DNA of 64,000 bases from an uncultured Thermoleophilia bacterium (GTDB taxonomy: Bacteria > Actinomycetota > Thermoleophilia > UBA2241), in assembly GCA_963735345.1 (NCBI GenBank), contig CAVTKL010000009.1, positions 6,916 to 70,915 on the forward strand, written 5' to 3'. The notes beneath the pieces are model-generated. The model worked only from the letters and a program-made list of their open reading frames with translations. It did not search any database and was not told where the DNA came from. This document shows positions 23,102-64,000 of this stretch, piece by piece; the first letter of the stretch is position 1, and every line of letters starts with the position of its first letter. The position numbers and the translations under genes were made by a program.

Positions 23102-23572
23102 TCAGTCGTCCTGCAGCTTCGTGAAGACCAGCGAGGTGCCCCCGTCACGCTGCTTGCGCACGTCCAAATCGTCGACGACGGCGCGAATGATCGAGATGCC
23201 CATCCCGCCTTCGCCTTTGGGCAGTCCGGGGATGGTCGCGCACTCGGGGCAGTCCACTTCGTCCACGTCGAACCCGGCGCCGTCGTCGCAGATCTCGATG
23301 ACGACGCGGTCGTCGTGCATCGTGAACACCATGTGTACCTGGCCGTCGCCATCGTCGTACGCATGGCGGACCGAGTTGGAACACGCCTCCGTGAGGGCGA
23401 GCTTGAGATCGGCCACAGCGTCTTCGGAGTAGCCCCTCGAACGCAGCAGACCGACGAGCGCGAGACGACCAAGCACGACATACTCGGGCCTCGCCGGGAT
23501 ATCAAGCTTCACGTAATCGCTCACGGGCAGCAATGCTACTGGTTCGCCGACTCGCACACCAACTCCGGTCAT
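23102..23572 (-). CDS. RsbW/SpoIIAB-like GHKL serine kinase (anti-sigma regulatory factor)
   Basis: HATPase_c N-box (EACSNSVRHAY) and G-boxes (DDGAGFD ... GGMGISII). Its ATG at 23572 overlaps the radical SAM gene stop (ATGA). Confidence 0.75.
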   Translation of the reverse strand: MTGVGVRVGEPVALLPVSDYVKLDIPARPEYVVLGRLALVGLLRSRGYSEDAVADLKLALTEACSNSVRHAYDDGDGQVHMVFTMHDDRVVIEICDDGAGFDVDEVDCPECATIPGLPKGEGGMGISIIRAVVDDLDVRKQRDGGTSLVFTKLQDD

Positions 23573-24633: not shown

Positions 24634-24788
24634 GCGACGCTCCCCTCCAGGCCACCCGAAGGGCGACCATTCCAGACCTCCGATTGTACCCTGCTATACT
24701 CGGCTCTGTCGTACGGAGCCATGCACCTGAACGCTCGAGCGCCTGCCGTCTGCACCATGCCCGTTCCCACACTACAGCCCCGATCATC

Positions 24789-29204: not shown

Positions 29205-29248
29205 AGACGACTGGCCTCGCCGCCTGCGACGCCCTCTCCAGACTCGTC

Positions 29249-31932: not shown

Positions 31933-32681
31933 ACGTCCGGCCCTACGGCGATACCCGGGACGACGGCATGATGCAGTTCTCGTTCACGCTTCCTATCCCC
32001 TATTCCGTCAAGGCGCCCGACGTCGGCAAGCGCTTCCTCGAGGACATGGGCTTCCACACCGTCTCAGTGGCGGAGTGCACCTCGATCGACCCCAGGTACA
32101 CCTTCTACGTAGCGTACGGCCGTACGAACGCCACCATCGACCCCGATGAGGTGGAGGGCGACTACCTCGAGATGGAGGCGATGGACTACTACGCAGTCAA
32201 CCGCCTCATCGAGGAGAGACTCGGACGCAAGTTGGTGGTCGTGGGCGCGGCTATCGAGAGCGACGCCCATACCGTCGGCATCGACGCCATCATGAACATG
32301 AAGGGCTTCGCAGGGCACTACGGGCTCGAACGCTACCCGCAACTCGACGCCTCGAACCTTGGTTCGCAAGTGCCGAGCGAACAGCTTCTGAAGTACGCCC
32401 TGAGCGTAGGCGCGGACGCCATCCTCGTCTCGCAGATCGTCACGCAGAAGAGCATCCACGCGCAAAACTTGACGAAGCTGATCGAATTACTTGAAGCTGA
32501 GCGCGTACGCGAGCGCTTCGTACTGGTCGTCGGAGGGCCCCGTATCAGCAACGCCTTCGCCAAGGAGCTCGGGTACGACGCCGGATTCGGCCCCCGCACG
32601 ACCCCGCTGGAGGTGGCAGCGTTCCTTGCCCAGGAGGTCGTGAGGCGGCACGCAGCGACGGAGGGAGGCAAGCATGCCTGA
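31929..32681 (+). CDS. kamE: lysine 5,6-aminomutase beta subunit (B12-binding)
   Basis: Start at the internal Met (MNVRPYGD), forming an ATGA overlap with kamD. DxHxxG cobalamin motif (ESDAHTVGIDAI). Confidence 0.8.
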   Translation: MNVRPYGDTRDDGMMQFSFTLPIPYSVKAPDVGKRFLEDMGFHTVSVAECTSIDPRYTFYVAYGRTNATIDPDEVEGDYLEMEAMDYYAVNRLIEERLGRKLVVVGAAIESDAHTVGIDAIMNMKGFAGHYGLERYPQLDASNLGSQVPSEQLLKYALSVGADAILVSQIVTQKSIHAQNLTKLIELLEAERVRERFVLVVGGPRISNAFAKELGYDAGFGPRTTPLEVAAFLAQEVVRRHAATEGGKHA

Positions 32682-33870
32682 CACCGACATCGTGATCCTT
32701 GCGGCAGTGCGCACCGCACACGGCCGCTTCCAGGGCGGCTTCTCCGGCACATCAGCCGTGGATCTCGCGGCCGTCGTGATGAAGGAGGTGCTGCTCCGGG
32801 CAGGGGTGGACGGAGAGCAGCTTTCTGAGGTCGTCTTCGGAAACGTCATCCAGGCTGGCCAGGGCCAGAACCCGGCACGGCAAGCCGCGCTCAAGGCTGG
32901 CATCCCCGCGCAGATCCCGGCGATGACGGTCAATCGGGTCTGCGTGTCGAGCAGCTCCGCTTTGGCGATCGCCGCCAACGCGATCGCTGCCGGCGCGGGG
33001 GACTTGTTCCTCGTCGGGGGCACCGAGAACATGACGCGTGCTCCCTGGCTGATGCAGGACGGCCGCAGCGGGTACCGCATGGGACTGCCCACAGAGCCGA
33101 TCTACGATGCCATGGTGTGGGACGGACTCTGGTGTGCCGTGGGGGATTACCACATGGGCGTGACTGCGGAGAACCTGTGCTCGCAGTTCGACATCACGCG
33201 CGAAGAACAGGACGATGCCGCGTACGAGAGTCACGTCAGAGCCATCGCCGCCATCGACAGCGGCCGCTTCGCCGACGAGATCACCCCGGTCGTCGTCCCC
33301 CAGCGCAAGGGAGAGCCCCTTGTCTTGGCTACTGATGAGTGCCCGCGCCGCGATGCGAGTCTCGAGTCCTTGGCGAGACTCAAGCCCTTCTTCCTGGAAG
33401 GCGGCGTGGTGACGCCGGGCAACTCGTCGGCGATCGCCGACGGCGCGAGCGCCTTGGTCGTGGCCTCGCGCCGCAGAGCGGCGGAGCTCGGCCTCCGCCC
33501 CATCGCCGAGCTGCTGAGTCACACGACAGTCGCCGTCGCCCCCGAGATCATGGGAGTAGGTGCGGCGAGCGCGGCGCAGGGCGCCCTCGAGAAGGCCGGG
33601 CTGAGGCCCGGCGATGTGGATCTCGCCGAGTTCAACGAGGCCTTTGCTTGCGTCTCGCTCCTGGCCACGAGAGAGACCACGATCGACCCCGCCATCGTCA
33701 ACGTCAACGGCGGGGCGATCGCGCTCGGACATCCGCTGGGCAGTACCGGGACCCGGATGCTCGTCTCGCTCATCCATGAGCTGCGCCGCCGCGGCGGAGG
33801 GACAGGGCTCACCGGAGCGTGCGTGGGCGGCGGCCAGGGCGCCGGGTCAGTCATCAGAACGATCGACTAG
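32674..33870 (+). CDS. acetyl-CoA C-acetyltransferase (thiolase II)
   Basis: 398 aa. Thiolase signatures NRVCVSS ... NVNGGAIALGHPLGSTG ... GGGQG. Confidence 0.9.
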   Translation: MPDTDIVILAAVRTAHGRFQGGFSGTSAVDLAAVVMKEVLLRAGVDGEQLSEVVFGNVIQAGQGQNPARQAALKAGIPAQIPAMTVNRVCVSSSSALAIAANAIAAGAGDLFLVGGTENMTRAPWLMQDGRSGYRMGLPTEPIYDAMVWDGLWCAVGDYHMGVTAENLCSQFDITREEQDDAAYESHVRAIAAIDSGRFADEITPVVVPQRKGEPLVLATDECPRRDASLESLARLKPFFLEGGVVTPGNSSAIADGASALVVASRRRAAELGLRPIAELLSHTTVAVAPEIMGVGAASAAQGALEKAGLRPGDVDLAEFNEAFACVSLLATRETTIDPAIVNVNGGAIALGHPLGSTGTRMLVSLIHELRRRGGGTGLTGACVGGGQGAGSVIRTID

Positions 33871-33879: not shown

Positions 33880-34962
33880 ATGATGGAAGGCAACAAATTC
33901 GGGGCGCACAGGGTCCTTGAGCCAAAGGGCGTGCTGCCGCAGCCGGCGCTGCGCGTCGACAACACTATGGTCATCTACGACAACGAGATCCTCATCGACG
34001 TCGATACGCTCAACGTGGACGCGGCAAGCTTCACGCAGATCGAGGCGGCTGAAGGCGGCGACGTGCGCAAGATGGCACGCCGCAGCTTGGGCATCATCGC
34101 CGAGCGCGGCAAGCATCACAATCCGGACACGGGCTCGGGAGGCATGCTTCTCGGCACCGTGAGGGAGATCGGGCCAAGACTCAAGGACCGCGATCTGAAG
34201 ATCGGTGACCGCATCGCCACGCTCGTCTCGCTGTCGCTCACGCCCCTCAAGGTCGACGAGGTGCTCGCGATCAACAAGGACACCTGCCAGATCAAGGTCA
34301 AAGGGCAGGCGATCCTCTTCGAGAGCGGGATCTACGCGAAGATGCCCGACGATCTCGACGAGGCCCTGGCGCTCGCCATACTCGATGTCGCGGGAGCGCC
34401 CGCGCAGGCGGCTAAACTGTGCCGGCCTGGAGACACGGTCTTCATCATCGGGGCGGGCGGCAAGAGCGGCCTACTCTGCGCCTACGAGGCCCGCAATCGC
34501 GTAGGCGTCACCGGCAGGGTCATCGGCCTCGTCCACGGGGATGCAGGAAAGGCGCGCCTCGAGAGAACGGGATTCTGCGACGACATCATCCAGGGGAGCG
34601 CGACAGACCAGCTCTTCGTGTACGAGGCTGTCAGTGCCCTCACCGCGGGCGAGATGGCCGATCTGACGATCAACTGCGTCGACGTCCCCAATACTGAGAT
34701 GGCCTCCGTCCTGGCGACCAAGGACTCCGGCACGGTCTACTTCTTCAGCATGGCGACCAGCTTCACGGCGGCGGCGCTGGGCGCAGAGGGCATCGGCGCT
34801 GACACGACGATGCTCATCGGTAACGGCTACACGAAGCATCATGCCGAGATCTCTCTGGCCGACGTGCGACAGAGCCCCATCCTTATGGAGATCTTCCAGG
34901 AGACCTACGCGACTGGAGCCGGGCTTTCTGAACCGGTAGGCCTGAAGGCTGACGAGGTCTAG
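33880..34962 (+). CDS. kdd: L-erythro-3,5-diaminohexanoate dehydrogenase
   Basis: 360 aa. Rossmann motif IIGAGGKSG. Overall similarity to Kdd of the lysine fermentation pathway, and adjacency to kamDE. Confidence 0.75.
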   Translation: MMEGNKFGAHRVLEPKGVLPQPALRVDNTMVIYDNEILIDVDTLNVDAASFTQIEAAEGGDVRKMARRSLGIIAERGKHHNPDTGSGGMLLGTVREIGPRLKDRDLKIGDRIATLVSLSLTPLKVDEVLAINKDTCQIKVKGQAILFESGIYAKMPDDLDEALALAILDVAGAPAQAAKLCRPGDTVFIIGAGGKSGLLCAYEARNRVGVTGRVIGLVHGDAGKARLERTGFCDDIIQGSATDQLFVYEAVSALTAGEMADLTINCVDVPNTEMASVLATKDSGTVYFFSMATSFTAAALGAEGIGADTTMLIGNGYTKHHAEISLADVRQSPILMEIFQETYATGAGLSEPVGLKADEV

Positions 34963-42006: not shown

Positions 42007-46912
<4,906 letters not shown>

Positions 46913-47042
46913 TCAGGAAACGGCCCGGGTGCTGCTGTGAGTATAGCAGATTCGGGGTTGGGGAGCGAGCCGCAGACACTCAAGAAACTCCTGCAAAGAG
47001 ACCACTTATTCGGCCCTTCGAAGAAGACCGTGGAGATAGGTG

Positions 47043-47531
47043 TCAGTGATCCCCTGAAGAGGCTCGCAAGGCCGCCTCGATGGCGGCGCGGAGGTGAGGA
47101 TCACGCACCTCCACGGCCATCGCTCTGGCGCCCTCAAGAGCTTCACCGGAGAGTCTCTCCGCGGGCTCCTTCGCAGGCTCCGCAGGGCGCTCCGAGTCAT
47201 CGGGGGGGCGCACAATGCGTTCGACCACGAAACGCAGCCGCTTCACGGGCTGCCCCGGCGCGACCTCGTCCATGTGGGCGAGTATCTCGCCGCTGAGATA
47301 GGTCAGCTCATTCGCCCAGATCGACGACGCGCACTCCACCGTGAGCACGCCGTTGAAGAAGCGGCTGGGGCGCGCGCAACTGGAGACGGGCGCGCCCGAG
47401 GCTCGTGTCCAGGCACTGAAGGCGCGCGCTTGATCGCTTCCGGCGAGGCGCTGCAGAGCGGGATCGAGGATCTCGCTGAGCGGTCTCGGCAGACTACTGC
47501 GCTGCCGCTCGGTGTCACCCTCACGACTCAC
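47043..47531 (-). CDS. dciA: DUF721/DciA-family protein (putative replicative-helicase loader)
   Basis: 162 aa. DUF721 hallmark WANEL within VLTVECASSIWANELTYL. Conserved recF-gyrB position (as Rv0004 / YaaB). Confidence 0.7.
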   Translation of the reverse strand: MSREGDTERQRSSLPRPLSEILDPALQRLAGSDQARAFSAWTRASGAPVSSCARPSRFFNGVLTVECASSIWANELTYLSGEILAHMDEVAPGQPVKRLRFVVERIVRPPDDSERPAEPAKEPAERLSGEALEGARAMAVEVRDPHLRAAIEAALRASSGDH

Positions 47532-48778
47532 AGCGCATCAATCGCCGGCGTCGAGGGTCCGGCCGCTTCCGCCGGCGCGTCCCGCGACGCCGGGTCCACG
47601 GATCCCTGCAGTGGCAGTTGGATCAGCGTCGCTTGAGCCAACTCCTCCTCTGTGAAGTACTGGCGATTGGTGGTCGTGATGATCGTTTGCCCTGCCACCG
47701 ACAGTTGGCGTATCAGCAGCCTCCGGCGCGCGTCGTCGAGTTCACTCATGACATCGTCGAGAAACAAGGTGCCGACCGCATTCGTCCTGGCGGCCGCGAC
47801 CTCCTGCTCCGCGAGGAGCAGGGCGAGGACGGCGAGACGCTGCTCGCCCTGAGACCCGAACAGCCGCAAGTCCCGCCCTCCCGGCGGCAGTTCGACCGGC
47901 CCGCAGACCGAGCCTGCAAGATCCGCGGTCTGAGCCGGCGGGCCGGAGCCGCCCGACGAAGGCGTGGCGGCTTCGAAGAACCGCAGATCATCGCGGTGCG
48001 GACCATACAGCGACAGACCCCGGCTGATCTCTCCAGGACGGCGACGCAGCAACTCGTCCCGGAGAGCGTCTTGCTCAAACCCGACGGCCTCGAGCTGCGT
48101 CACGAGTTGTAGCCGGTAGGTCTCATTCTGCGGAGTCAATGCGGCGGCGGCGGCCGTGTAGCGACCGCCGAGCTCCACGACCAGGTCGCGGCGGCGGCGG
48201 CCAAGCTCCGTGGCGGCGCGCGCGAACTGCGTGTCCCAAGGGTCCAGGCCGCGCGCTGAAGCACCGGCCTTCACCGACGCCAGTTGGGCGTTACGTTGCC
48301 GCAACGCTTCCTGCAGGTCACGAACAGCGGCCGCGTATTGTTTGTCAAGAGCGCCGGCGTAGGTGTCGAGATGAGCGCGACGCCGGGCCGGACTGCCTTT
48401 CACCAGCAGGAGACTCTCAGGCATGAAGAGTGAGATCTGGCTGCGACTGCGCAAGTCCTCCAGTGAGCTCACCTCGACGCCCGACCAGCGCACGCGCTTG
48501 CCCTCGCGCGGCGCGTAGCCGAACTCGACTTCTGTTGGCGCTCTGGAGCCGCCCTCGAGCGTCAACTCAATGCGGGAGAAGTGGGCTCCCCACAGTACGA
48601 GCTTCTCTTCGCGCCGGGTGCGCGGAGAGGCGCCACGCAGTGCGAACCAGGCGCCCTCCAGGAGATTCGTCTTGCCGGTGGCGTTCGCGCCCACCACGAC
48701 ATTGAGGCCGGGGCCGAAAGCGACAACGGCATCACAGTACGAACGGAAATTGATGAGCCTCAGTCTGGAGACGAACAC
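47528..48778 (-). CDS. recF: DNA replication and repair protein RecF
   Basis: GTG start. Walker A GANATGKTNLLEGA. Confidence 0.9.
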   Translation of the reverse strand: MFVSRLRLINFRSYCDAVVAFGPGLNVVVGANATGKTNLLEGAWFALRGASPRTRREEKLVLWGAHFSRIELTLEGGSRAPTEVEFGYAPREGKRVRWSGVEVSSLEDLRSRSQISLFMPESLLLVKGSPARRRAHLDTYAGALDKQYAAAVRDLQEALRQRNAQLASVKAGASARGLDPWDTQFARAATELGRRRRDLVVELGGRYTAAAAALTPQNETYRLQLVTQLEAVGFEQDALRDELLRRRPGEISRGLSLYGPHRDDLRFFEAATPSSGGSGPPAQTADLAGSVCGPVELPPGGRDLRLFGSQGEQRLAVLALLLAEQEVAAARTNAVGTLFLDDVMSELDDARRRLLIRQLSVAGQTIITTTNRQYFTEEELAQATLIQLPLQGSVDPASRDAPAEAAGPSTPAIDAL

Positions 48779-48975
48779 ACGCGATACTCCACTCCCTGCA
48801 CGGCGACCACGTCATCAAGCTGGAGAATCCGGCCGCGGCGCTGCTCAAGTTCACCGTTCACCGTGACCTCGCCACCTTGCACCAGGATCTTGGCGTGACC
48901 ACCCGTACCTGCAGCGCCGGCGAGTTTGAGAAAGGACCCCAGCGACAGCGGTCCGCTGACGAAGACGTCGTTCAG
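48760..48975 (-). CDS. yaaA: S4-like RNA-binding protein YaaA/RlbA homologue (small hidden gene, about 70 aa)
   Basis: Reverse-complement translation of the dnaN-recF gap: (L/M)NDVFVSGPLSLGSFLKLAGAAGTGGHAKILVQGGEVTVNGELEQRRGRILQLDDVVAVQGVEYRVCSSPD*. It aligns along its length with B. subtilis YaaA as recalled from memory (ITLGQFLKLA..GG.AK..L....V.VN.E.DNRRGRKL..GDVV...G). No in-frame ATG/GTG/TTG is available upstream; the best start is CTG at 48975-48973, adjacent to the dnaN stop. It overlaps the recF start by 19 nt. It is missing from the ORF track for this reason. Confidence 0.6.
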   Translation of the reverse strand: MNDVFVSGPLSLGSFLKLAGAAGTGGHAKILVQGGEVTVNGELEQRRGRILQLDDVVAVQGVEYRVCSSPD

Positions 48976-50084
48976 TTGCTCAACCGGATCGGCATGATGA
49001 GGTATGTGAAGTCTTCGCCGGCGCCACTGATGATGCCGGGGCGCAATGGGCTGGTGAAGCGCAGAATCACGGCGGCGTCATCAACGGCGTCGATACCCTC
49101 TATGAGGTACACGGGACTGAACCCGATCTCGAAGGGCTCGCCTGAGAAGTCCACCTCGAGCACCTCTTCAGCTTGACCGACATCCTGCGTCAGGGCCTTC
49201 ATCGTCAGTTTGTGGTCGGCGAACGATAGCCGCAGCGGCACGCTCTTCTGGGCAAGGAGGCTGACGCGCCTGGCCGCGGCCATGAGCTCGTCCCTTCCGA
49301 GGCGCACCTCGTGGTCGAACGCATCAGGAATGAGCTGCCGGTGGTTGGGGAATTGGCCGTCGATGAGGCGCGAGGCGACCCACACTGTGCCCGTGGGTCC
49401 GGCCAGCCGGAAAAGGGCCTGGTTCGCGGTGATGCTGATATCGATCTCGCCGGAGCCCATCGCGGACGCGAGCCGCGACACTTCGGCAAGCGCCTTCACA
49501 GGGACGATCGCCTGCACTTCCGTCGCCAAGGCGTGATCGAGCTTGGTCTCCTTGACCGCCAAACGGTAGCTGTCGGTGGCCACCATTCTGAGTGTATCTC
49601 CGAGAATCGTCATCAGGACGCCCGTGAGGATAGGCCGTGTCTCGTCGCGTGACGCCGCGCGGCCGACCTTGTTCAGCGTCTCGATGAACGGCTCTCGGCT
49701 GACGGAGAATCCGTCGCCGACCTCGAACGTCGACGTCTGCGGGAAGTCGCTCGCCGACCAGGCATTGAGGGAGAACTTCGCCTCTCCTGCGCGGACTTCG
49801 AGGGCCGTCTCGCCGGCTTCGATCATCACTCTGTCTGTGGGCAGGTTCCTCACGATATCGGAGAAGAGACGCGCCGGGATGACGAGTTCGCCGTCCCGCT
49901 CGACGTCAATCGCAAGGCTCGCCTTGATCGAGAGTTCCATGTCGGTGGCGAACATGTCGAGGCGTCCGTCGGCGGCCTGAAGAAGAATGCCGGAGAGCAC
50001 AGGCAGAGCACTGCGCGTAGACACGCCTCGGGCGAGGATCGTCAGTTTGTCGACGAGCTGTGAGCGATCACACGAGAACTTCAT
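48972..50084 (-). CDS. dnaN: DNA polymerase III beta sliding clamp
   Basis: 370 aa, three-domain clamp. MKFSCDRSQLVDKL N-terminus. Confidence 0.95.
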   Translation of the reverse strand: MKFSCDRSQLVDKLTILARGVSTRSALPVLSGILLQAADGRLDMFATDMELSIKASLAIDVERDGELVIPARLFSDIVRNLPTDRVMIEAGETALEVRAGEAKFSLNAWSASDFPQTSTFEVGDGFSVSREPFIETLNKVGRAASRDETRPILTGVLMTILGDTLRMVATDSYRLAVKETKLDHALATEVQAIVPVKALAEVSRLASAMGSGEIDISITANQALFRLAGPTGTVWVASRLIDGQFPNHRQLIPDAFDHEVRLGRDELMAAARRVSLLAQKSVPLRLSFADHKLTMKALTQDVGQAEEVLEVDFSGEPFEIGFSPVYLIEGIDAVDDAAVILRFTSPLRPGIISGAGEDFTYLIMPIRLSN

Positions 50085-50395
50085 CCCGACTCCTTATGAC
50101 AATCAAGAGAAGAGTTTCTCTTCATCATCGTCATAGCACCTGTTGACAATGCGGAGAGCGACGCTTCTTCCTGCACTGGGGCGTCATTGGCCTCTGCAGG
50201 GATCTGTGGACAAATACACGGGATCGGGCGCGTTCTCCGCAGCCCCCTGCGGTACAGGCGAAGCATAGCGGATTTTCATGTTGAGACGACGACAATATCC
50301 ACCGTCAACGCGAGGCTCTTCACACTTGCATGTGGAGAGGCGCCGGGGTCCTCTCGTGAGTCACTCGCGAGATCGTGCCCGGAAACGGAACCCCG
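50085..50395. promoter_or_regulatory. dnaA-dnaN intergenic region with DnaA boxes and the most AT-rich stretch of the window (oriC candidate / DUE)
   Basis: Perfect TTGTCCACA (rc at 50206-50214), TTGTCAACA (rc at 50141-50149) and weaker boxes near 50295 and 50331. AT-rich runs at 50091-50150 and 50250-50300. Confidence 0.6.
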
Positions 50396-51838
50396 TCAGC
50401 GGCTGGATCGTAGCCGTGTGCTGATAAGGTCGATCAAGTCTTGGAGTTGCGGATCGTGGCCGTCCTTGAGTTGGCGCTCCACCTTGTCGACCGCGTAGAT
50501 GACCGTCGTATGGTGGCGTCCCCCGAAGCGTGCGCCTATCTGCGGCAGCGAGGTCTCCGTGAGTCTGCGCGTCAGGTACATCGCGATCTGTCGGGCATAG
50601 GCGACTTCCTGAGTGCGACGGTTGCCGCGCAGGTCGTTGACGTGAAGCCCGAACTGCCTGGCCACCTCCGCCTGGATCATCTCGACGGTGATGGCGTGCT
50701 GGTAGGCCTGCGGGACGATGTCCTTGAGCGCTTCCTTGGTCACGTCGAGGGTCACCTCGACGCCGCGGAACGAGGCGAAACTGACCACACGGGTGAGCGC
50801 GCCATAGAGCTCGCGGATGTTGGTGGTGACACGGGAGGCGATCCACTCAAGGACTTCCGGCTCGCGGATCTGGAAGCCTTCCCACTTCACGTGCTTGCGG
50901 AGGATCGCGATGCGCGTCTCCAGGTCAGGCCGGCTGATGTCGACGACCACACCCTGGCCGAAGCGAGAGCGCAAACGCTCTTCGAGTTCCACCAACTCGC
51001 GTGGCGGCCGATCGGACGTGATCACGATCTGCTTGCCCGCCTCGTAGAGCGCGTTGAATGTGTGGAAGAACTCGACCTGCGTCTGCTGCTTCTCGACGAG
51101 AAACTGGACGTCGTCGATGAGCAGGACGTCGTTCTGGCGGTACGCCTGCTTGAAGCCGTCGATGCGGTTCTTGTCGGTGACGGCGTTGATGAAGTCGTCG
51201 GTGAAGCGCTCCACCGTCACGTACTTGACCTGCAGATCAGGGTGCTGCTGGTGTGTGGCGTGAGCGATGGCCTGGATGAGATGGGTCTTGCCGAGCCCGG
51301 TGTCGGCGTAGATGAACACCGGGTTGTACGCGGTCGCCGGCGACTCGGCGACGCTGCGCGCCACAGCCGCCGCGTACTGATTGTGCGGCCCCTCCACGAA
51401 GCGGTCGAAGAGGTAGCGCGGATTGAGGTCGCCAGAGGCTTGGGAATGGCGCGTCTCAGGAGCGACGCGAGAGGCCTTCGCCGTGGGTCCTCGCTTGTTC
51501 GGGGCAGGGTCCTCCCCCTCCGTTGACACGGGACCCAGGGACGGCAGCGCCGCCGCACGAGCGTCGACGACGACGCGCACGCTCACTGCGTCGCCAAGCA
51601 CTTCGCTGAGCGCCTCGGCCACCATCCCGGCGAGGCGCTTTTCGATCCAGTCCCGGGCGAAGTCGTTGGGCACGCCGATGACGAAGGCTCCATCATCGAG
51701 ACCGAGAGGCAGCGTGCGATCGAACCAGAAGCGGAAGGCGGATTCGTTGAGGCGTCCGCGAAGATGGGCCTTCGCGGTGTCCCAGATGAGTGTCAGTTGG
51801 TCGTCCGTGGCCGCCTCGTGGTGTGATTCCCCGAACAC
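50396..51838 (-). CDS. dnaA: chromosomal replication initiator protein DnaA
   Basis: 480 aa. AAA+ Walker A GDTGLGKTHL and a C-terminal DNA-binding domain (VAYARQIAMYLTRRLT). GTG start 29 nt after the upstream gene stop. Confidence 0.95.
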   Translation of the reverse strand: MFGESHHEAATDDQLTLIWDTAKAHLRGRLNESAFRFWFDRTLPLGLDDGAFVIGVPNDFARDWIEKRLAGMVAEALSEVLGDAVSVRVVVDARAAALPSLGPVSTEGEDPAPNKRGPTAKASRVAPETRHSQASGDLNPRYLFDRFVEGPHNQYAAAVARSVAESPATAYNPVFIYADTGLGKTHLIQAIAHATHQQHPDLQVKYVTVERFTDDFINAVTDKNRIDGFKQAYRQNDVLLIDDVQFLVEKQQTQVEFFHTFNALYEAGKQIVITSDRPPRELVELEERLRSRFGQGVVVDISRPDLETRIAILRKHVKWEGFQIREPEVLEWIASRVTTNIRELYGALTRVVSFASFRGVEVTLDVTKEALKDIVPQAYQHAITVEMIQAEVARQFGLHVNDLRGNRRTQEVAYARQIAMYLTRRLTETSLPQIGARFGGRHHTTVIYAVDKVERQLKDGHDPQLQDLIDLISTRLRSSR

Positions 51839-51867
51839 CCTGGCTATCCGCGGGGATCCCTCGTCAG

Positions 51868-52764
51868 TCAGAGGATGCTTTCCAGGAGATGAAGACCTTC
51901 CTCGGCCAAGGCGCGCTTGCCGTCGCCGACCGCGTGGATGAGGCCCATCTCCTGCAGTATAACGAGTTCTCGGAACGCGGTCGCCGGGGCGACGCCGAGT
52001 TCTTTGGCGACGGCGGTGGGGCCAGCGGCGCCCAACTCCATGAGCAGGACCAGGACCTTCGTCTGTCGGGTCGAGAGCTTCACCTTGGGAGGCGACACGA
52101 GCGGCGCCAACTCGGCGGCGTGGGCCGGCATCTTGATCGTGAACACCGCGCCCCCGCCCAGGTTGTCCTCGACGGTGAGCACGCCGCGCAGGAACTGGAG
52201 CGACTCGCGCGCCACCGGTAGTCCCGACCCTACTCCACGGATGAGGTCGCGCTGCATGGCGGTCGCCGTGGTGAAGCCCGGCAGGAAGGCGCGCTCCTTG
52301 TCGTCGACGCCGGGGCCGTGGTCGGAGATACGGATCGTCTGGCCGTTGTCGAGGATAGTGATCACCACATCCTTGAAGTAGGCATGGAGGAGGTTCTCGA
52401 TGAGTTCCTGGAGGACGGTGAAGGGGATCTGACCGCCCTGCTCACGGCATTGGCTGTACGTCTTCTCCGCTAGAGAGGCGATGAGCGCCGGCAGGTCCTT
52501 CTCCTCGACGATCACGACCCGCGGCGGCGACGTGAGGGCATCGTAGATCGCGATACGGGGGGCGCCGCCGCCGGAGGGGACATCGGGAAGTCCGCGAGGT
52601 GCGGGCGATGGGTCAGTTGGTGTGTCGACAACGGGGACCGCGGCGCCTGCAGCCGGCTTCTCAGGCTGGATCGCGGCCTCCCTGTCGGCGAGCAGCCTGT
52701 CGAGGAAGGACTCCATAGGGGGCACGAGTATAGCAGAGCCGTTTGCCCGCACCGGAACCGTCAT
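51868..52764 (-). CDS. GHKL (HATPase_c) ATPase domain fused to a C-terminal winged-helix HTH; unknown N-terminal domain; origin-proximal, co-directional with dnaA
   Basis: 298 aa. Bergerat-fold N-box (ELIENLLHAYF), G1 (DHGPGVDD) and G2 (GVGSGLPV) motifs. C-terminal HTH LSTRQTKVLVLLMELGAAGPTAVAKELGVAPATAFRELVILQEMGLI. No kinase H-box. The N-terminal 120 aa have no recognisable family. Confidence 0.6.
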   Translation of the reverse strand: MTVPVRANGSAILVPPMESFLDRLLADREAAIQPEKPAAGAAVPVVDTPTDPSPAPRGLPDVPSGGGAPRIAIYDALTSPPRVVIVEEKDLPALIASLAEKTYSQCREQGGQIPFTVLQELIENLLHAYFKDVVITILDNGQTIRISDHGPGVDDKERAFLPGFTTATAMQRDLIRGVGSGLPVARESLQFLRGVLTVEDNLGGGAVFTIKMPAHAAELAPLVSPPKVKLSTRQTKVLVLLMELGAAGPTAVAKELGVAPATAFRELVILQEMGLIHAVGDGKRALAEEGLHLLESIL

Positions 52765-52805
52765 CGGGGCTCAAGAAACGCGGTTTTGCAGCCCGAACGG
52801 CAGAG

Positions 52806-57430: not shown

Positions 57431-58811
57431 ATGACGCTGACACGGACTCACGCCATGGGCACGGCTGCACGCCTGGCCGTGCTTGCTCCCGAGGAGATGC
57501 AACGGCTGGACGCCGCCGCCCTCGAGGTGCTGGAGGAGGTCGGCGTCGCCATTCCTTCGGAGCGCGCCCTCTCGGCCCTGGCCGGCGCCGGGGCGGACAT
57601 CGACGGCGACGCCGTCAGGTTCCCGCCCGAACTGGTCCGGCGGCTCGTGGCGCTGGCGCCCTCGCGACTCACGCTGGGGGCGAGAGCGGCCGCCCCCCTC
57701 GTGACCGGCGAGCGGGCGTTGGTGACCACGGACGGCTGCTGCGTCGAGATCTACGATCTGGAGAGCGGCGTGAAGCGGCGCACCGTCGCGCGCGATGTGG
57801 CGCAGATCGCCCACGTCGTCGACGGCATGCCGGAGATCGACTTCTGCTGGCCCTCGGTCAGCGCGCACGATCGACCTGTCGAGAGGCGCGGGCTTCATGA
57901 GCTGTATCTCGCTCTCGCGAACACGGGCAAACACGTGCAGACCGTCACCGTCGTCGAGCCGGGGCTCGCGGAGGTCGCTGTGCGCATGGCGCGAGTCGTG
58001 GCGGGAAGCGATGCTCGTCTACGTCACGGGTCTCCTGTCAGCGCTCTTCTCGGGACGGTGACGCCTCTGGGCAGCGACCCCGGGACCCTCGAGGCCGGCC
58101 TGGTCTTCGCCGGGGCTGGTGTCCCCGTCGGCTTCGTGACCATGCCGATGGGCGGGTCCACGACCCCCATCACCATGGCGGGCTCCCTGGTGGTCGGTAT
58201 CGCCGAGGCGCTCAGCAGTGTCTGCGTGATCCAGGCTGTCTTCCCCGGCGCGCCCGTCTTCATCTGTTTCATCCCCAGCCTCATGGACCTCAAGACCGGC
58301 GACTTCACCGGCGGCGCCCCTGAGGATACGATCATGGGCGCCGCCGTGGCGGACGTGGGCGTCTACTACGGACTGCCCACGCAGTGCGGCATCAACTCCT
58401 CGGGCGCCAAGCTGCCGGGCTGGCAGTCCGCTCTCGACGACGCAACGACGACCTTTCTGTCGGTGGCCTGCGGCGTCGACATGCTCGCCGGCGTCGGCAT
58501 GGTCTCGGGGGGTCGCATCTTCAGCTACGAGGAGATGGCCCTGGCCGTCGAGACTCTCACGCAGGCGCGCGCTGTCGCCGCGGGCATCGATCTCAGCGCT
58601 CTCGACGGACCGTCGGCTGTGGTGCATGAAGCGCCTGCGGATCTTCCGTCCCTCACGTCGGGGACAGTCCCCAGTTCTTTCGGTGGACCGCGCACGCGAG
58701 CGCGTACGGGCGATCCTCGCGGGGCATCGCCCGCCGGCCCTTGCGCCGTCCGTCGACACTGAGCTGCGCCGGCTCGTGGGCAGCGAGCGGGGCGCCTCCT
58801 TCGCGGACTAG
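57431..58811 (+). pseudogene. MttB-superfamily (trimethylamine-type / non-pyrrolysine quaternary-amine) corrinoid methyltransferase, disrupted by a +1 frameshift near 58620-58640
   Basis: N-terminus MTLTRTHAMGTAARLAVLAPEEMQRLDAAALEVLEEVGV fits the family. The body runs in frame 57431 up to about 58620. The family C-terminus (...DRARERVRAILAGHRPPALAPSVDTELRRLV) is encoded in the +1 frame (track ORF 58626-58811). The total span is not a multiple of 3. Confidence 0.55.
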
Positions 58812-59011
58812 CGCCGCCCAGCGACGGGACAACAGCCTGCGCGTCGGGGCATTTGTGCTTGTCTTTTGTGGCTCGTGCTGTATAAAAGGGCATCGGATCC
58901 CTCCGCGTGAGCGCCGTCGGGGCACTTGTTCGCTCACGCCGGGGCAGGCTCGGGCGCGTCTTGTCGCGCCTCTGGGGCATGCCGGTGCCAATCAGCCCGA
59001 AAGGATGGAGT

Positions 59012-59914
59012 ATGAGAAAGAGCAGGACCTATATCGTGGCGGCGGCACTCGTCGTCGCGATCCTGGCGGTCATGGCGATCGCCGTCGGCTGCGGGGGGAG
59101 CGACACCCCAGCGGCGGACGAGAGCAGCCCGGCTGCGGGCGGGCTGGATGGCAGCGCCGCCCAGCGTGCCGAGGAGATTCTCGGGCACGCGCCGACAGGC
59201 AAGGCCAAGGAGGTCATCGACAAGGGTACGATGACGGTCAACAACGACCCCAAGTATCCGCCGCAGAGTTCCATCGACGAGGCGACGGGTGACCTCGTGG
59301 GCTTCGACGTGGATGTTGCCAAGAAGGTCGGCGAGCTTCTCGGTCTCCAGGTCGAGTTCACTGACCATCCCTTCGATACGATCCTCACCGATGTCAACCA
59401 GGACCGCTACGACGTGTCGATCGGCTCCATGACGATCACCAAGGAGCGCCTGGCGAAGGTGGACATGACGGAACCGTATTACTTCACCCCAGCGGGTATC
59501 GTGGTGAAGGAAGGCGGGACGCAGATCACCGGCGTGGAGGATCTCGCCGGCAAGAAGGTCGGCGTCGGCGCCGGCACCACGTACCTCACGTGGTTGCAGG
59601 ACAACAGCGACGCGAAGGTCGTGATCTACGATACCGATGCGTCCATGTTCCCGGACTTGGCCAAGGGGAGCCGCATCGACTTCGGGTTCACCGCGGTCCC
59701 CACTTCGATCGAAGCGATCAGGCAGGGCCAGCCGTTCGAGCTCTCCGGAGATCCGCTTTACTACGAGGATCTGGCGTTCGCGAGCAAGAAGGGTGAGGCC
59801 GACTGGCTCGCTCTCCTCAACTACACCGTGAAGACCATGCACGACGACGGATCGCTCACCGACATGAGCGAGGTCTGGTATGCGGGCGTCGATCTCACGC
59901 GGAAGGCGCAGTAG
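59012..59914 (+). CDS. ABC transporter substrate-binding lipoprotein, polar amino-acid (family 3) type
   Basis: ATG 59012 after AAGGATGGAG. Lipobox AVGCGGS. PBPb fold motifs (DVSIGSMTITKERLAKVDMTEPYY). Confidence 0.85.
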   Translation: MRKSRTYIVAAALVVAILAVMAIAVGCGGSDTPAADESSPAAGGLDGSAAQRAEEILGHAPTGKAKEVIDKGTMTVNNDPKYPPQSSIDEATGDLVGFDVDVAKKVGELLGLQVEFTDHPFDTILTDVNQDRYDVSIGSMTITKERLAKVDMTEPYYFTPAGIVVKEGGTQITGVEDLAGKKVGVGAGTTYLTWLQDNSDAKVVIYDTDASMFPDLAKGSRIDFGFTAVPTSIEAIRQGQPFELSGDPLYYEDLAFASKKGEADWLALLNYTVKTMHDDGSLTDMSEVWYAGVDLTRKAQ

Positions 59915-60024
59915 AAGATCCGCAGCTGGTCCGTCCGCGTACTCCGCGGACCCGCATTCTGCTTGACCCCGGCGGGGGTCTGAGTATACTCAGGCCCCCG
60001 CCGTGTCACCTCGACGAGAGGTCA

Positions 60025-61263
60025 GTGCCCGTGCAGACGAGACGCTGGTGCACACGAGTCACCCTTCTTGCGGTCGCCGTCGCCCTTGTGGCGGTCCTCT
60101 TTGCGTCTTCTGCCGCCGCGGCCTCGCCGTCGCCGTCGCCGTCGCCTGCGCCGCAGGGCACGCCCGAGGTCACCGGCACCATCCCCAACCCGAAGGATCC
60201 CAAGGGCCAGAAGGGCTGGACAGGCCGGTCGGTCATCGTCAACTACAAGCCCAACGGGGCTGAGGTAGACGCCGCCAGCTGCAAGCTCTTCGTCGACGGC
60301 ACGGAGCAGGAACTCAGCCAGCCGCCCAGACAACTCCCCACCGGCTCGGCCGTGACGCAGTCGATCGAGTTTCGTTGGCTGGAGGCATATCCCGAGGGCG
60401 ACTACAAGTTCCGCGTGGTGCTCGTGACGACCGCCGGCGAGGAGGTCGAGTATACGTGGAACTTCGGCTCGACGGGCGAGGCGGGTTCCGGGGCGCTGAT
60501 CGACTTCAAGGTGATGCGCGACTGGTTCTGGTTCATCGCCCGAGGCGCGGTCGTCACGGTGGAGTTGACGATCATCTCGATCGTGTTGGCCTCCGTGTTC
60601 GCTCTTTTCGGGTCCCTGGGGAGACTCTCCAAGAAGATGAGCTTCAAGCAGGCGTGGGATCGTTACCAGAGCTGGGGCTACATGGCCCGGATGGTCATCG
60701 GCCGCATCCCGTACTGGGTGGCGACGTTCTACACCTCCCTCTTCCGCGGGACCCCGCTGCTCCTGCAGATCGTCGCCATCTACTCGGTCATCCCGGAGGT
60801 GATCGACAGGTTCGGACTGCCGCAGTCGTACGCTCCGTCGGCGTTCTGGTGCGGCGTCGCCGCCCTCTCGCTCAACTACGGCGCCTACCTCAGCGAGGTC
60901 TTCCGCGCCGGGATCCAGGCAGTGCCCAAGGGCCAGCACGAGGCCGCCTGGGCGATCGGCCTGAGCGGATGGCAGACGCAGCGGCGTGTCGTCCTGCCGC
61001 AGGCGTTCAAGATCGTGTTGCCGGCGGTCGGCAACGACTTCATCGCGCTCATCAAGGACACCTCGCTGGTGTCGGTCATCACCATCCAGGAACTGCTGCG
61101 CCGCTCGCAGCTTGCAGGGGCCGCCACCTTCAGTTTCTTCAGTACGCTGCTTGTGGCGGCCGCCTTCTACTGGGCCCTGACGATCTTCTTCAGTTTCTGG
61201 CAGGCCAAGCTCGAGACGCGCATGGCGCGCGACAAGGCGAGAGAGAAAGAAAAGGCGCGCTGA
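60025..61263 (+). CDS. amino-acid ABC transporter permease (HisM/GlnP type) carrying an unusual ~170-aa N-terminal secreted domain
   Basis: C-terminal 5-TM permease core with EAA-like loop ([21 protein letters not shown]). Preceded by a signal peptide, a PSPSPSPAP linker and a ~130-aa domain of unknown fold ([22 protein letters not shown]...[21 protein letters not shown]). Confidence 0.8.
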
Positions 61264-61264
61264 C

Positions 61265-62233
61265 ATGGCGACGAACGACGGGAGCAGTGTCTCGGTGACG
61301 GACGAGCGCGAGATCATCGTCGAGGTCAAGGACCTGCACAAGTACTTCGGCAGGAACGAAGTACTCAAAGGCATCGACCTTGTCGTCCGCAGGGGCGAGG
61401 TGGTCGTACTCATCGGCCCCTCGGGTTCGGGCAAGAGCACCTTCCTGCGCTGCCTGAACTTCCTCGAGGATCCGACGACGGGCGAGATCACGGTCGGCGG
61501 AGTGCATGTCGTCTGCGGCAGCCATGGGAGCACCTTCAAGAAGGCGGTGCACCAGATCCGCATGAAGTGCGGCATGGTGTTCCAGGAGTTCAATCTGTTT
61601 CCCCACAAGGACGCCACCGAGAACGTCATCGAGGGGCCTATCCTGGTGCGCGGAGAGAAGAAGGCCGACGCCATCGCCAAGGCGCACGATCTCCTGACGA
61701 AGGTCGGCCTTGCTGAGCGCATCGACTACTTCCCCAGCCAGCTCTCCGGCGGCCAGAAGCAGCGCGTCGCGATCGCCCGGGCCATGGCCATGGAGCCCGT
61801 CCTGATGCTCTTCGACGAGCCGACGAGCGCTCTCGACCCCGAGCTGATCGGTGAGGTCCTCAAGGTCATGAAGGACCTCGCCAAGCAGGGCATGACCATG
61901 ATCGTCGTCAGCCACGAGATGGGCTTCAGTCGCGATGTGGCCGACCGCGTCGTGTACATGGACGCCGGCGTCTTCATCGAGGAGGGGCCGCCCAACGAGG
62001 TGTTCTTCCACCCGCAGGACGAGCGCACGAAACGCTTTCTGCGGCACATCCTGCCCGAGCAGGAGCCCCAGCATGCGAAGGAGCTCGGTATCGTGGAGGT
62101 CGACCAGGAGCTGCCAGATCCCGGGGCAGTCGGGTCACAGGGGTCTGCGGCCGACGCGGCCATCCCGGAGATCCCAACCGGACAGGGCGCGGCAGGCGAG
62201 TTGCCTCTCCCGCCCGGCGACGAGATGCTCTAG
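61265..62233 (+). CDS. amino-acid ABC transporter ATP-binding protein with a C-terminal extension
   Basis: Walker [10 protein letters not shown], signature [14 protein letters not shown], Walker [13 protein letters not shown]. About 70 extra acidic/Pro-rich C-terminal residues. Confidence 0.9.
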
Positions 62234-62242
62234 GCGAGTCGA

Positions 62243-62707
62243 CTAGGAGCGCTTGTTCAGCGCGGCTTCGATCCGTGCGAGGCGCTCGTCGATCTGGCGC
62301 AATTGCTCCGCGGACGGAGCGTCGTCGTCGGGGGGCTGCTGATCTTGGCGCGTCCGGGTCACCAGCGAGCTGGTGATCGAGGCGGTGATCACCGTGATGA
62401 ACCCGATGCCGAGCAACATGACAAGCGCTGCCAGGATCTGGCCGGCGCCCGTCGTCGGGACGTGGTCGCCGTAGCCGACCGTGGTGACTGTCTGCACGCC
62501 CCACCAGAGCCCAGAGCCCAGCGAGGGGAAGTGCTCGCGGTCGATGACCGTCATGAGCAGGCCCGCGACGATCGTGATCGAGGTCGTGACGCTGGCGATG
62601 ACGATCGCCGCCCCTCGAGGCTTCGCGGCGCGGGCAATCCGCCGGTCGAGCCAGCGCTCGCTTCTGCTCTCCGGTTCCATGACCGTAGGGTTCGCGATGG
62701 CGGCCAC
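62243..62707 (-). CDS. small 2-TM potassium channel (Ion_trans_2 family)
   Basis: K+ selectivity filter TTVGYGD between two TM helices. GTG start. Confidence 0.8.
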   Translation of the reverse strand: MAAIANPTVMEPESRSERWLDRRIARAAKPRGAAIVIASVTTSITIVAGLLMTVIDREHFPSLGSGLWWGVQTVTTVGYGDHVPTTGAGQILAALVMLLGIGFITVITASITSSLVTRTRQDQQPPDDDAPSAEQLRQIDERLARIEAALNKRS

Positions 62708-62811
62708 CAGTCCTGCCGCGCACGGCAGGACTGGCTCGCGGCTGGTACGTAAGGGTAGTAGAGTCGGTGGCCGTGGTGCGGGGACCGCAGGAGAGCGAAG
62801 CAGAAGGTGGC

Positions 62812-64000
62812 ATGAACTCGGCCCGACTGACGATCTGGGACGACGCGGCTTGCAGGCGCGTGCACGAAGCGACGCTGGACGTGCTCGGCGACACAGGCAT
62901 CGAGGTGCGCTATGCGCCGGCGCTCACCGTCTTCGCGAAGGCCGGCGCAGAGGTCGAGGGCACACGCGTGCGCATCCCGGCCACGCTGATCAACCGCGCC
63001 ATCAAGAGCGCTCCGCGTGACTGGACGCTGAAGTCACGCGGCGGAGACACTGCGCCGCTTGTCCTCGACGCTCACCACAGCTACTGCGGTACGGGCAGCG
63101 ATGTGCTCTACGTCCGCGACCCCGACACGCGCGAGCGCCGTCGCGCGCGCAAAGCCGACATCGAGGGCATGGCCGCGCTCTGCGAGAAGCTCCCCCACAT
63201 CGATTTCGTGATGAGCATGGGTCTGCCTGAGGATGTGCCGCAGGCCATCGACGATCTCGCCCAAGTCGACGCCATGGTGCGCGGCACGCGCAAGCCGCTG
63301 CTTGTCGCGGCACGCGATGGCCACGTCCTCGTCAAGCTCAAGGAGATGGCGGCGCTGGCCGGCGAGGTCGACAGCTTCGGCATCTATGCGATGCCCGTGC
63401 CGCCTCTCATGATCGACGAGGATGGCGCGAGCAAGGTGATCGCCTGCGCCGAACTCGACATCCCGTTGATCTGGGCGCCGGCGCCGGCCGCGGGGACCAC
63501 GGCGCCGGCCAGCATCACCTCGGTGATCGTGGTCGCCAACGCCGAGGTGCTCGCCGGCCTCGTGCTGAGTCAGGCTGTCAAGCCGGGTGCTCCCTTCGTG
63601 TGGGGCGTCGGTGCGGGAGCCATGAACATGCGCACCATGAACGAGGTGTACTCTTCGGCTGGTCCCGTGCAGGGCTATCAGGCACAGACCGACTTGGCGC
63701 GTTGGTACGACCTGCCCAGCTTCAGCTATGCGGCACACTCCGACAGCAAGACCCTCGATGAGCAATGGGGAGTGGAGAGCGCCATCACGACCGTCACCGG
63801 CCTGCTCTCGCGCGCGACACTGTTGCACGACGTCGGGTACCTGGAGGCCGGCCTGCAGAGCAGCTACGAGTCGATCTTGCTCGGCAACGAGCTCGTCGGC
63901 TACACGAAGGCGTTCATGAGCGAACTCAGGGTGGACGACGAGGCGCTGGCGCTTGACGAGATCAAGGCCGTCGGGCCGGGCGGCAGTCATCTGGCCCGGC
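62812..64000 (+). CDS. second MttB-superfamily corrinoid methyltransferase (3'-truncated by the window end)
   Basis: ATG 62812 after GAAGGTGG. MNSARLTIWDDAACRRVHEATLDVLGDTGIEVRYAP parallels the N-terminus of the first copy. The frame stays open for 396 codons to the window edge, with no stop, so it is absent from the ORF track. Confidence 0.75.
   Translation, partial: MNSARLTIWDDAACRRVHEATLDVLGDTGIEVRYAPALTVFAKAGAEVEGTRVRIPATLINRAIKSAPRDWTLKSRGGDTAPLVLDAHHSYCGTGSDVLYVRDPDTRERRRARKADIEGMAALCEKLPHIDFVMSMGLPEDVPQAIDDLAQVDAMVRGTRKPLLVAARDGHVLVKLKEMAALAGEVDSFGIYAMPVPPLMIDEDGASKVIACAELDIPLIWAPAPAAGTTAPASITSVIVVANAEVLAGLVLSQAVKPGAPFVWGVGAGAMNMRTMNEVYSSAGPVQGYQAQTDLARWYDLPSFSYAAHSDSKTLDEQWGVESAITTVTGLLSRATLLHDVGYLEAGLQSSYESILLGNELVGYTKAFMSELRVDDEALALDEIKAVGPGGSHLAR

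Follow-up and report, generated by a model that had tools for sequence, protein, structure and literature searches.

The stretch of DNA analysed here (the window; 64,000 nucleotides of contig CAVTKL010000009.1, assembly GCA_963735345.1) derives from an uncultured bacterium of the class Thermoleophilia (Actinomycetota), and its downstream end carries two genes of the MttB methyltransferase superfamily, MttB1 and MttB2, which lie on either side of an ATP-binding cassette (ABC) importer composed of a family-3 substrate-binding protein (SBP), a permease and an ATPase (Table 1). Genes in the window were read from a listing of open reading frames (ORFs), their translations and Pfam scans, in which the gathering cutoff of the MTTB family is 25 bits. 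A previous reading of these letters, made without database searches (the sequence-only reading), had placed two MttB genes, an SBP, a permease, an ATPase and an opposite-strand K+ channel in this region, and all six are present in those places, the channel being recognised inside the importer/MttB region by its Ion_trans_2 match and TVGYGD filter. These genes form the upstream margin of a catabolic island that is located near the replication origin and is about 15 kb long; its conserved core lies beyond position 64000. On L003, a metagenome contig of the same species, the order past the end of the window is MttB2, MttB3, MttB4 (the start of which overlaps the stop of MttB3), KamA, RACo, EamA and a class-III aminotransferase.

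Conservation of the MttB island in Thermoleophilia

The locus was placed in uncultured Thermoleophilia by a RACo scan across one genome per species, in which the nearest representatives were 79–85% identical. Synteny was established by tblastn, and a crude clustering of ORFs was not relied on because it fused adjacent genes and took antisense ORFs in high-GC DNA; the window DNA has a G+C content of 62–73%. About 20 Thermoleophilia loci reached through RACo (60–85% identity) consist of a variable upstream part followed by MttB4, KamA, RACo, one to six EamA genes and the aminotransferase, and a BKACE gene follows the aminotransferase in at least 11 of them, wherever the contig extends that far. 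Three further loci reached through MttB4 (L065–L067, 50–52% identity) hold four tandem MttB genes, KamA, RACo, five or six EamA genes and the aminotransferase, with BKACE in the two loci whose contig continues and the ABC importer in none of the three. The number of MttB paralogues per island ranges from three to five. The EamA (DMT) paralogues stand in tandem between RACo and the aminotransferase, and their number varies from one to six by species (positions 19268–20212 in L003; also L004–L028 and L065–L067).

MttB1 and the SBP gene are adjacent in eight loci, and in L011, L014, L020 and L023 both are kept while the permease and ATPase genes are absent or fragmentary. Given that more distant relatives keep the MttB core without an importer, the latter is an accessory module, which accompanies MttB1 within the subclade of the window. 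The K+ channel is confined to the window species, with no tblastn match in L004–L064, and its slot is occupied in relatives by a minus-strand pyrrolysine (Pyl)-type mttB gene identified by PYLIS_3 matches. Like the channel, the MttB2 arrangement is particular to the window species.

Some loci depart from this layout or add to it. Two loci from metagenome-assembled genomes (MAGs) of anaerobic digesters, L009 (6962–11785) and L010 (8741–11788), have only the backbone TPK-MoeA-sortase-SBP-RACo-GGDEF, in which an orphan family-3 SBP adjoins RACo and no MttB, kam or ABC membrane genes lie between sortase and GGDEF. An ornithine-racemase-like gene (Ala_racemase_N; 327.5 bits on the Orr model, below its cutoff of 480) sits on the minus strand among the MttB genes of L014 (4224–5399), L016 (5756–6889), L020 (5753–7000) and L022 (5378–6880), and a HigB/HTH toxin-antitoxin pair lies among those of L020 and L023.

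The island encodes four divergent MttB paralogues

The island of the window species encodes MttB1 (451 aa), MttB2 (477 aa), MttB3 (486 aa) and MttB4 (439 aa), which exhibit pairwise identities of 24–41%, with MttB2 only 24–28% identical to the others. Identity to the solved MtgB and Pyl-MttB is 25–32%, and those two proteins are 30% identical to each other. The description of two paralogues that bracket the importer stands in so far as both flank the ABC set, but they are merely two of four divergent paralogues spread over the island, and a recent duplication of a known betaine methyltransferase, an outcome for which the sequence-only reading had allowed, does not account for them. Its assignment of both window genes to the non-pyrrolysine part of the superfamily agrees with their MTTB scores (Table 1), with the lack of any in-frame UAG in the four genes and with their scores on TIGR02369, which are 275.7 bits for MttB1, 297 for MttB2, 483.6 for MttB3 and 218 for MttB4, all below the equivalog cutoff of 525. 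The residues in the pyrrolysine column are Ser, His, Ala and Ala, respectively.

The Pfam MTTB match of MttB1 spans profile positions 27–417 of 500, and the full-length MttB2 orthologue of L003 (11548–12981) covers positions 3–469 of 469 in TIGR02369. A segment of about 26 aa with the pattern LALDxIKxVGPxGxFL..HTR..W.P...DR is absent from MttB1 in all five species compared, where a variable Pro/Gly/Ala linker takes its place, and MttB4 is without about 29 N-terminal residues. In MtgB, glycine betaine is bound by Y97, R312, H348 and F356 (PMC13080624). The corresponding residues are G/Q/A/G in MttB1, S/F/H/G in MttB2, G/A/N/S in MttB3 and G/S/L/G in MttB4, as read from an alignment at 25–31% identity in which single columns are somewhat uncertain, and none of the four positions is kept across the paralogues of the island. 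Six substrates of the MttB superfamily are known (PMC12155760), none of which is derived from lysine, and most members of this very large superfamily have no assigned function. A literature search returned no paper linking MttB to trimethyllysine, lysine fermentation or Thermoleophilia.

Several characterised systems invite comparison. MtgB/MtgC/MtgA of Desulfitobacterium hafniense (PDB 2QNE/9YCE) and MtpB/MtcB/MtyB/MthB with MtqC/MtqA of E. limosum belong to the same superfamily (PF06253), likewise without pyrrolysine and likewise with a RamA/RACo-type activase nearby, and their transfer of a quaternary-amine methyl group to a Co(I) corrinoid would by analogy be the expected chemistry here. 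The Thermoleophilia island differs from both in that no corrinoid protein or tetrahydrofolate methyltransferase gene is adjacent, that transport is represented by a polar amino-acid (PAAT) ABC importer and EamA instead of BCCT or OpuA, that kamA, kat and kce are mixed into it, and in its host. Pyl-MttB of Methanosarcina barkeri (PDB 7XCL) has its nearest island relative in MttB3, encoded just past the end of the window (1e-78), but differs from all four paralogues in the residue at the pyrrolysine position, the UAG codon and the sub-cutoff scores given above.

Genuine Pyl-type genes occur in the same island of related Thermoleophilia, at L007 2225–2324, L008 9–108, L011 4155–4254, L012 4079–4178, L016 2743–2842, L020 2047–2146, L022 1356–1455 and L023 1967–2066. 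Among these are one Dimeth_Pyl (mtbB) gene with an in-frame TAG exactly at the start of its PYLIS_2 match (74.8 bits) and seven minus-strand mttB genes that are split at the amber codon and have PYLIS_3 matches of 61–80 bits (gathering cutoff 38).

A single inserted base interrupts MttB1

A frameshift in MttB1 had been proposed near 58620–58640; the change of frame is present in the sequence, but its site is position 58657, where one inserted G breaks the frame and leaves the family's C-terminal helix in a separate ORF (Table 1). Three public metagenome contigs that encode an identical ATPase sequence (L001–L003; 87 kb, 1.06 Mb and 1.47 Mb) are 98.3–98.8% identical to the window over 12.7 kb, and where the window reads CAC[G]TCGGGG they read CAC or CCC directly followed by TCGGGG. 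An extension of the G run from GGG to GGGG was rejected, since direct inspection places the extra G before TC and outside the run. The inserted base lies outside any homopolymer run and falls inside the variable Pro/Gly/Ala linker of MttB1.

All three near-identical contigs encode the intact MttB1, and deletion of the G restores the same protein in the window, ending with the conserved C-terminal helix, which is also in frame in the MttB1 orthologues of four further species. The ratio dN/dS is 0.20–0.35 for the whole gene and 0.26–0.53 for the tail after the shift site, and MttB1, including the frame after 58657, is under purifying selection across species. Private 1-bp indels occur in each of the four assemblies, with MttB3 split in L001 and RACo split in L002, and fragmented tblastn matches are found in many genes of related long-read MAGs. 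The window's MttB1 and SBP products had no exact match in the protein collection searched, and JGI metagenome contigs gave no match to a 29-base pattern across 58657, whether the extra base was included or not. Since three near-identical contigs lack the insertion and purifying selection acts on the gene, the frameshift is most likely an assembly error, or else a very recent lesion. The artefact envisaged by the sequence-only reading is therefore the likeliest explanation, in the form of noise private to this assembly, although a very recent lesion would account for it too.

A different account, in which MttB1 and the ABC module are decaying, the frameshift is genuine and this strain has only a pseudogene or a non-catalytic remnant of MttB1, is unlikely. 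It draws on the position of the insertion outside a homopolymer, on the conserved segment that MttB1 lacks in all species, on the SBP, permease and ATPase genes that are broken up or absent in L011, L020 and L023, and on the failure to find the window's gene products in the protein collection, which leaves the allele without an independent copy. Against this stand the intact frame in all three near-identical contigs and the dN/dS values, which are below 1 even after the shift site, and the same assemblies have private 1-bp indels in clearly essential island genes; fragmented matches are common in related long-read MAGs.

The importer is of the polar amino-acid type and bears an unusual ectodomain

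The importer had been assigned to the PAAT type and not to the OpuA type, and the presence of an SBP_bac_3 domain, a HEQRo N-terminal domain with three transmembrane helices and a GlnQ/HisP-type ATPase supports this. All three components match cystine, LAO, His, Gln, Arg and ectoine systems, in each case with a score short of the equivalog cutoff. On NCBIfam models, the SBP scores 146 bits for cystine (cutoff 312) and 118 bits for LAO (cutoff 256), its nearest relatives being cationic and polar amino-acid binders, and its best solved relatives are ancestral Arg/Gln binders (AncQR, 1.6e-31) and a Thermus amino-acid binding protein. For the ATPase, the scores are 336 bits (TcyN) and 321 bits (GlnQ), both sub-cutoff, and the HEQRo domain of the permease scores 59 bits on TIGR01726, above its cutoff of 42.2. 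At its C-terminus, the ATPase is extended by an acidic tail of some 60 aa with the motif AIPEIP...GE.PLP.GDE.L, which is kept in L012 (1899–2894), where the ATPase is only 61% identical.

In an alignment of SBP orthologues, the Asp of the TD motif is replaced by Ala in MttB-linked SBPs, whereas TD is kept in the SBPs of L009 and L010, which have no MttB nearby. The window SBP has the Arg of the GxxTxxxxR motif, which L009, L010 and L014 lack. In LAO-type binders, this Asp and this Arg are the ligands of the alpha-ammonium and the alpha-carboxylate group, respectively. As the site residues vary among orthologues, they are only a hint and do not fix the ligand.

The permease is encoded by a single gene, with GAGAGG 3 nt upstream of its GTG start, and presumably works as a homodimer. 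The BPD_transp_1 domain starts only at aa 218, which leaves about 165 aa ahead of the first core helix; these comprise a signal/anchor helix (aa 6–30), a Ser-Pro linker, the repeat length of which differs by an in-frame 6 bp between strains, and a beta-sandwich domain. This ectodomain is predicted to be a seven-strand sandwich of about 100 aa (aa 47–150, pLDDT 85–92); it contains no histidine within aa 46–153, and its invariant alignment columns are N, N, G, L, A and T. It is rare: homologues number 16 among 5.8 billion proteins and 41 among 1.84 billion cluster representatives. Besides occurring on a handful of other PAAT permeases, it is found by itself as a small protein and in repeated form within very large proteins. 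The ectodomain matches no Pfam family, in line with the earlier proposal of a secreted N-terminal domain without an assigned function, and aa 1–217 have no SBP Pfam match, which disposes of the possibility, also raised earlier, that the domain is a known fused SBP.

On the predicted model, the ectodomain is a CopC-like beta-sandwich and not a fused SBP. It is 11% identical to CopC proteins (PDB 6NFQ, 5ICU) and has no Pfam CopC match, and in the absence of any histidine the Cu(II) site of CopC cannot exist. PAAT permeases fused to a substrate-binding domain (SBD), such as Lactococcus lactis GlnPQ (PDB 6H30/4KPT), likewise carry a signal peptide and an extracytoplasmic domain on an N-out terminus, but there the fused domain is an SBD of about 230 aa, whereas here a separate lipoprotein SBP is encoded upstream. 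Docking of the SBP and contact with the cell envelope are candidate roles for the ectodomain.

Corrinoid partners and the reductive activase

Pfam scans of the ORFs at 0–41 and 53–64 kb and tblastn with a Thermoleophilia corrinoid protein detected neither an MtxC-type corrinoid protein nor a pterin-binding methyltransferase II in the window, in agreement with the sequence-only reading, which had seen no corrinoid protein or MtqA-like gene there. The sole B12-binding domain in the window is that of KamE, at about 31.8–32.7 kb. The suggestion that the partners may lie beyond 64000 holds for the activase: a RACo/RamA-type protein of 595 aa with Fer2, RACo_linker, RACo_middle and RACo_C_ter domains is encoded at 17369–19156 of L003, 4.6 kb past the end of the window, and scores 353 bits on the AcsV model, below the equivalog cutoff. 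For the corrinoid protein (PF02607 and PF02310) and the methylcorrinoid:tetrahydrofolate methyltransferase (PF00809), it finds no support in the 8.2 kb past the window end, where neither was found.

A tblastn probe with a fragment of the E. coli MetH B12 domain, combined with a DxHxxG regular expression, picked out corrinoid proteins of distant loci and of L012 and missed KamE, and so was taken as specific for MtxC/MetH-type domains. A repeat with the corrinoid protein of L012 matched only itself; homologues of that protein number in the thousands at 80–100% identity in soil, and among the best 120 matches none lies on the three contigs of this species. In the relatives L012 and L067, a classical MtxC-type corrinoid protein of 208 aa is encoded beside the Pyl-type mttB in the same island. 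Separation of partner genes has a precedent in Ruegeria pomeroyi, in which mtgB, mtgC and mtgD are unlinked (PMC12478193). The split MtgBCDE system of that organism likewise keeps MttB-family genes apart from the corrinoid- and pterin-binding partners, and has features of its own in the aerobic proteobacterial host, the substrate glycine betaine and the tie to methionine synthesis.

Lysine-fermentation genes are embedded among the MttB genes

KamA, a radical SAM protein, scores 570.7 bits on TIGR03820 (cutoff 525.4), and matches the Clostridium subterminale enzyme (PDB 2A5H) at 1.7e-157; both Asp residues of the lysine pocket are retained. The class-III aminotransferase is HemL-like and scores 272 bits on the glutamate-1-semialdehyde (GSA) aminomutase model, below cutoff. 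KamA and the aminotransferase were read in L003, and the BKACE was read in L004, a related species, where it follows the aminotransferase and scores 373.6 bits on the Kce model, marginally below the cutoff of 382. In a variant of lysine fermentation, Perret et al. (PMC3149608) described a HemL-like gene in just this position, next to kce, as that of the 3-aminobutyryl-CoA aminotransferase Kat. Together with KamA, the KamD, KamE and Kdd proteins of the window are above their equivalog cutoffs, with Kce of L004 just short, and to judge from these family matches the organism appears to possess the complete Kat-variant pathway in two places: the MttB genes are interspersed with kamA and the kat-like and kce-like genes, and kamD, kamE, the thiolase gene and kdd, which account for the middle steps, form a cluster about 25 kb upstream. 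The Kat-variant cluster of Candidatus Cloacamonas acidaminovorans (PMC3149608) has in common with the present genes kamA, kamD, kamE, kdd and kce, the last with a class-III aminotransferase of the HemL-like kind beside it; kal was not seen here. The present arrangement differs in being divided between two loci, one of which is interleaved with four MttB genes, RACo and EamA.

A B12-independent beta-lysine short-cut was also considered as a reading of the aminotransferase and BKACE and was set aside as less simple, since kamD, kamE and kdd in the window, taken with the Kat paper, make the ordinary Kat-variant fermentation the simpler reading; it remains only as part of the methyl-lysine proposal below. 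The NetSyn BKACE preprint and the literature on beta-lysine keto acids offered no relevant precedent. Second copies of kce and of the HemL-like aminotransferase were not seen within 72 kb.

It is conceivable, if somewhat doubtful, that the importer is an ordinary basic or polar amino-acid importer, for example for lysine, that feeds this fermentation, in which case the flanking MttB genes would reflect mosaicism of the island and the MttB substrates would enter via EamA or by diffusion. The best matches of all three importer components and the binding of Arg, Gln or Lys by the solved relatives are consistent with this, as are the near-completeness of the pathway (kamD, kamE, kdd and a thiolase in the window, kamA and the HemL-like aminotransferase in L003, BKACE in L004) and the occurrence of the MttB core without any ABC system in L065–L067, which have five or six EamA genes. 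The position of the SBP gene argues for a tie to MttB1 instead, as it is always directly 3' of MttB1 in the eight loci, even where the permease and ATPase genes are gone; the change of the TD Asp to Ala in MttB-associated SBPs, with TD kept in the MttB-free L009 and L010, and equivalog scores that are all far below cutoff also speak against an ordinary lysine importer.

A second alternative is that the island serves the catabolism of an N6-methylated lysine such as N6,N6,N6-trimethyllysine, by one of two routes. In route A, the MttB proteins would remove the methyl groups and the resulting lysine would be fermented. In route B, KamA would form the beta-isomer, the HemL-like transaminase would oxidise its beta-amino group and BKACE would, with acetyl-CoA, yield acetoacetate and gamma-butyrobetainyl-CoA, which the MttB proteins would then demethylate stepwise onto a corrinoid protein; the 5,6-aminomutase, unable to use a quaternary N6, would be bypassed. 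A blocked-N6 beta-lysine route has a precedent in N6-acetyl-beta-lysine transaminase (EC 2.6.1.65). The order MttB4-kamA-RACo-EamA-aminotransferase, with BKACE where the contig reaches it, is kept down to 50% identity in MttB4, and of the lysine genes only kamA, the aminotransferase and BKACE sit with the MttB genes, kamDE and kdd being 25 kb off. The cationic amino-acid type of the importer and the three to five MttB paralogues per island fit as well, and no literature was found on MttB and trimethyllysine, the known substrates of the superfamily including no lysine derivative (PMC12155760).

This proposal is nonetheless improbable and is drawn from gene context. KamA is a textbook lysine 2,3-aminomutase, above its equivalog cutoff and with the Asp pair for a primary epsilon-ammonium group retained, and Kce and the HemL-like aminotransferase exactly fit the ordinary Kat-variant fermentation (PMC3149608), which, with no second copies within 72 kb, already accounts for both and for kamA. 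The Pyl-type trimethylamine and dimethylamine methyltransferase genes in the islands of relatives fit a general methylamine island.

Proposed function of the island

The region is best read as a corrinoid-dependent island for the demethylation of methylamine or methylammonium compounds with an accessory importer of the cationic amino-acid type, to which a probability of about 0.6 is assigned. By analogy with the characterised systems, each MttB would demethylate an N-methylated ammonium compound and load the methyl group onto a corrinoid protein in the Co(I) state, from which a methylcorrinoid:tetrahydrofolate methyltransferase would remove it; oxidised corrinoid would be returned to Co(I) by the RACo/RamA-type ATP-dependent reductive activase. 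Genes for the corrinoid protein and for the second methyltransferase would lie elsewhere in the genome. The importer would provide high-affinity uptake, probably of a compound that is cationic and resembles an amino acid, be it the MttB1 substrate or lysine itself.

Several observations weigh against this view of the island. Neither scores nor residues allow a substrate to be assigned to the MttB proteins or the importer, and the 64 kb upstream and 8.2 kb downstream yielded no MtxC-type corrinoid protein or pterin-binding methyltransferase, so that the methyl acceptor is a presumed one. The absence of the importer from L065–L067 and its partial state in L011, L014, L020 and L023 make its link to the MttB genes loose. 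The C-terminal segment missing from MttB1 and the N-terminal residues missing from MttB4 could alter the catalysis of either, and since the G inserted in MttB1 is not in a homopolymer, an error is not its sole possible reading.

Other features of the window

Coordinates of the island genes and of the lysine-fermentation genes upstream are collected in Table 1. A replication-origin gene set lies at 42010–52770, about 5 kb from the MttB island, in which dnaA, dnaN and recF were identified by family matches and gyrB and gyrA by ORF size and position only. Elsewhere in the window are parA, parB and gidB (20.5–23.1 kb), a type II fatty-acid synthesis cluster (0.3–4.7 kb) and an AmmeMemoRadiSam radical-SAM gene (23572–24693). 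An Rfam scan at the gathering threshold found no riboswitches in the window, L003, L004 or L012, and a scan of the island for promoters and terminators gave chance-level results only, except for a hairpin 3' of the SBP gene.

Table 1. Positions of the genes and domains discussed, numbered from the first nucleotide of the window.
Feature	Position	Strand	Match or remark
ORF overlapping the upstream side of kamD	28871–30322		No Pfam match
kamD	30319–31932	+	NCBIfam Lys_5_6_mutase, 773.8 bits (cutoff 600)
kamE	about 31779–32681	+	NCBIfam Lys_5_6_beta, 340.8 bits (cutoff 280)
Thiolase (acetyl-CoA acetyltransferase)	32674–33870	+	Below equivalog level
kdd	33880–34962	+	NCBIfam Lys_ferment_KDD, 254.5 bits (cutoff 200)
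MttB1	57455–58811 (alternative start 57431; uninterrupted ORF to 58762)	+	Pfam MTTB, 214.4 bits, 2.3e-63
MttB1, C-terminal part in the other frame (61-codon ORF with the family's C-terminal helix)	58626–58811	+	
Family-3 SBP lipoprotein, lipobox AVGC	59012–59914	+	SBP_bac_3, 109 bits, 1.9e-31
PAAT-type permease, GTG start	60025–61263	+	BPD_transp_1 at aa 218–401
Permease, 6-bp difference in the Ser-Pro linker	60124–60129	+	Compared with L001–L003
Permease, predicted CopC-like/Ig-like beta-sandwich (aa 46–153)	60160–60483	+	
ABC ATPase, polar amino-acid type	61265–62233	+	ABC_tran, 117 bits
Two-transmembrane K+ channel, TVGYGD filter, 145–154 aa	62243–62707	-	Ion_trans_2, 48.6 bits, 7e-13
MttB2 (first 396 of 477 aa in the window)	62812 to beyond 64000	+	MTTB, 211.6 bits, 1.6e-62

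Implications for the MttB superfamily and its hosts

The island is tightly conserved family-wide and links MttB-superfamily systems to lysine fermentation in a genomic association not described before. Its three to five MttB paralogues, all uncharacterised, share one apparent transcription unit with KamA, a Kat-like aminotransferase, a Kce-like cleavage enzyme, a reductive activase and EamA arrays. The hosts are abundant uncultured Thermoleophilia of soil and digesters, one subclade of which adds an amino-acid-type ABC importer, and Pyl-type mttB and mtbB genes are present in this class of Actinomycetota. If the island did act on methylated lysine, a lysine-derived substrate class would be added to the MttB superfamily, and beta-lysine-type compounds would have an undescribed anaerobic route in which the adenosylcobalamin-dependent 5,6-aminomutase is not needed. 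More broadly, the context of the island would narrow the candidate substrates of its MttB proteins to cationic, lysine-like methylammonium compounds.

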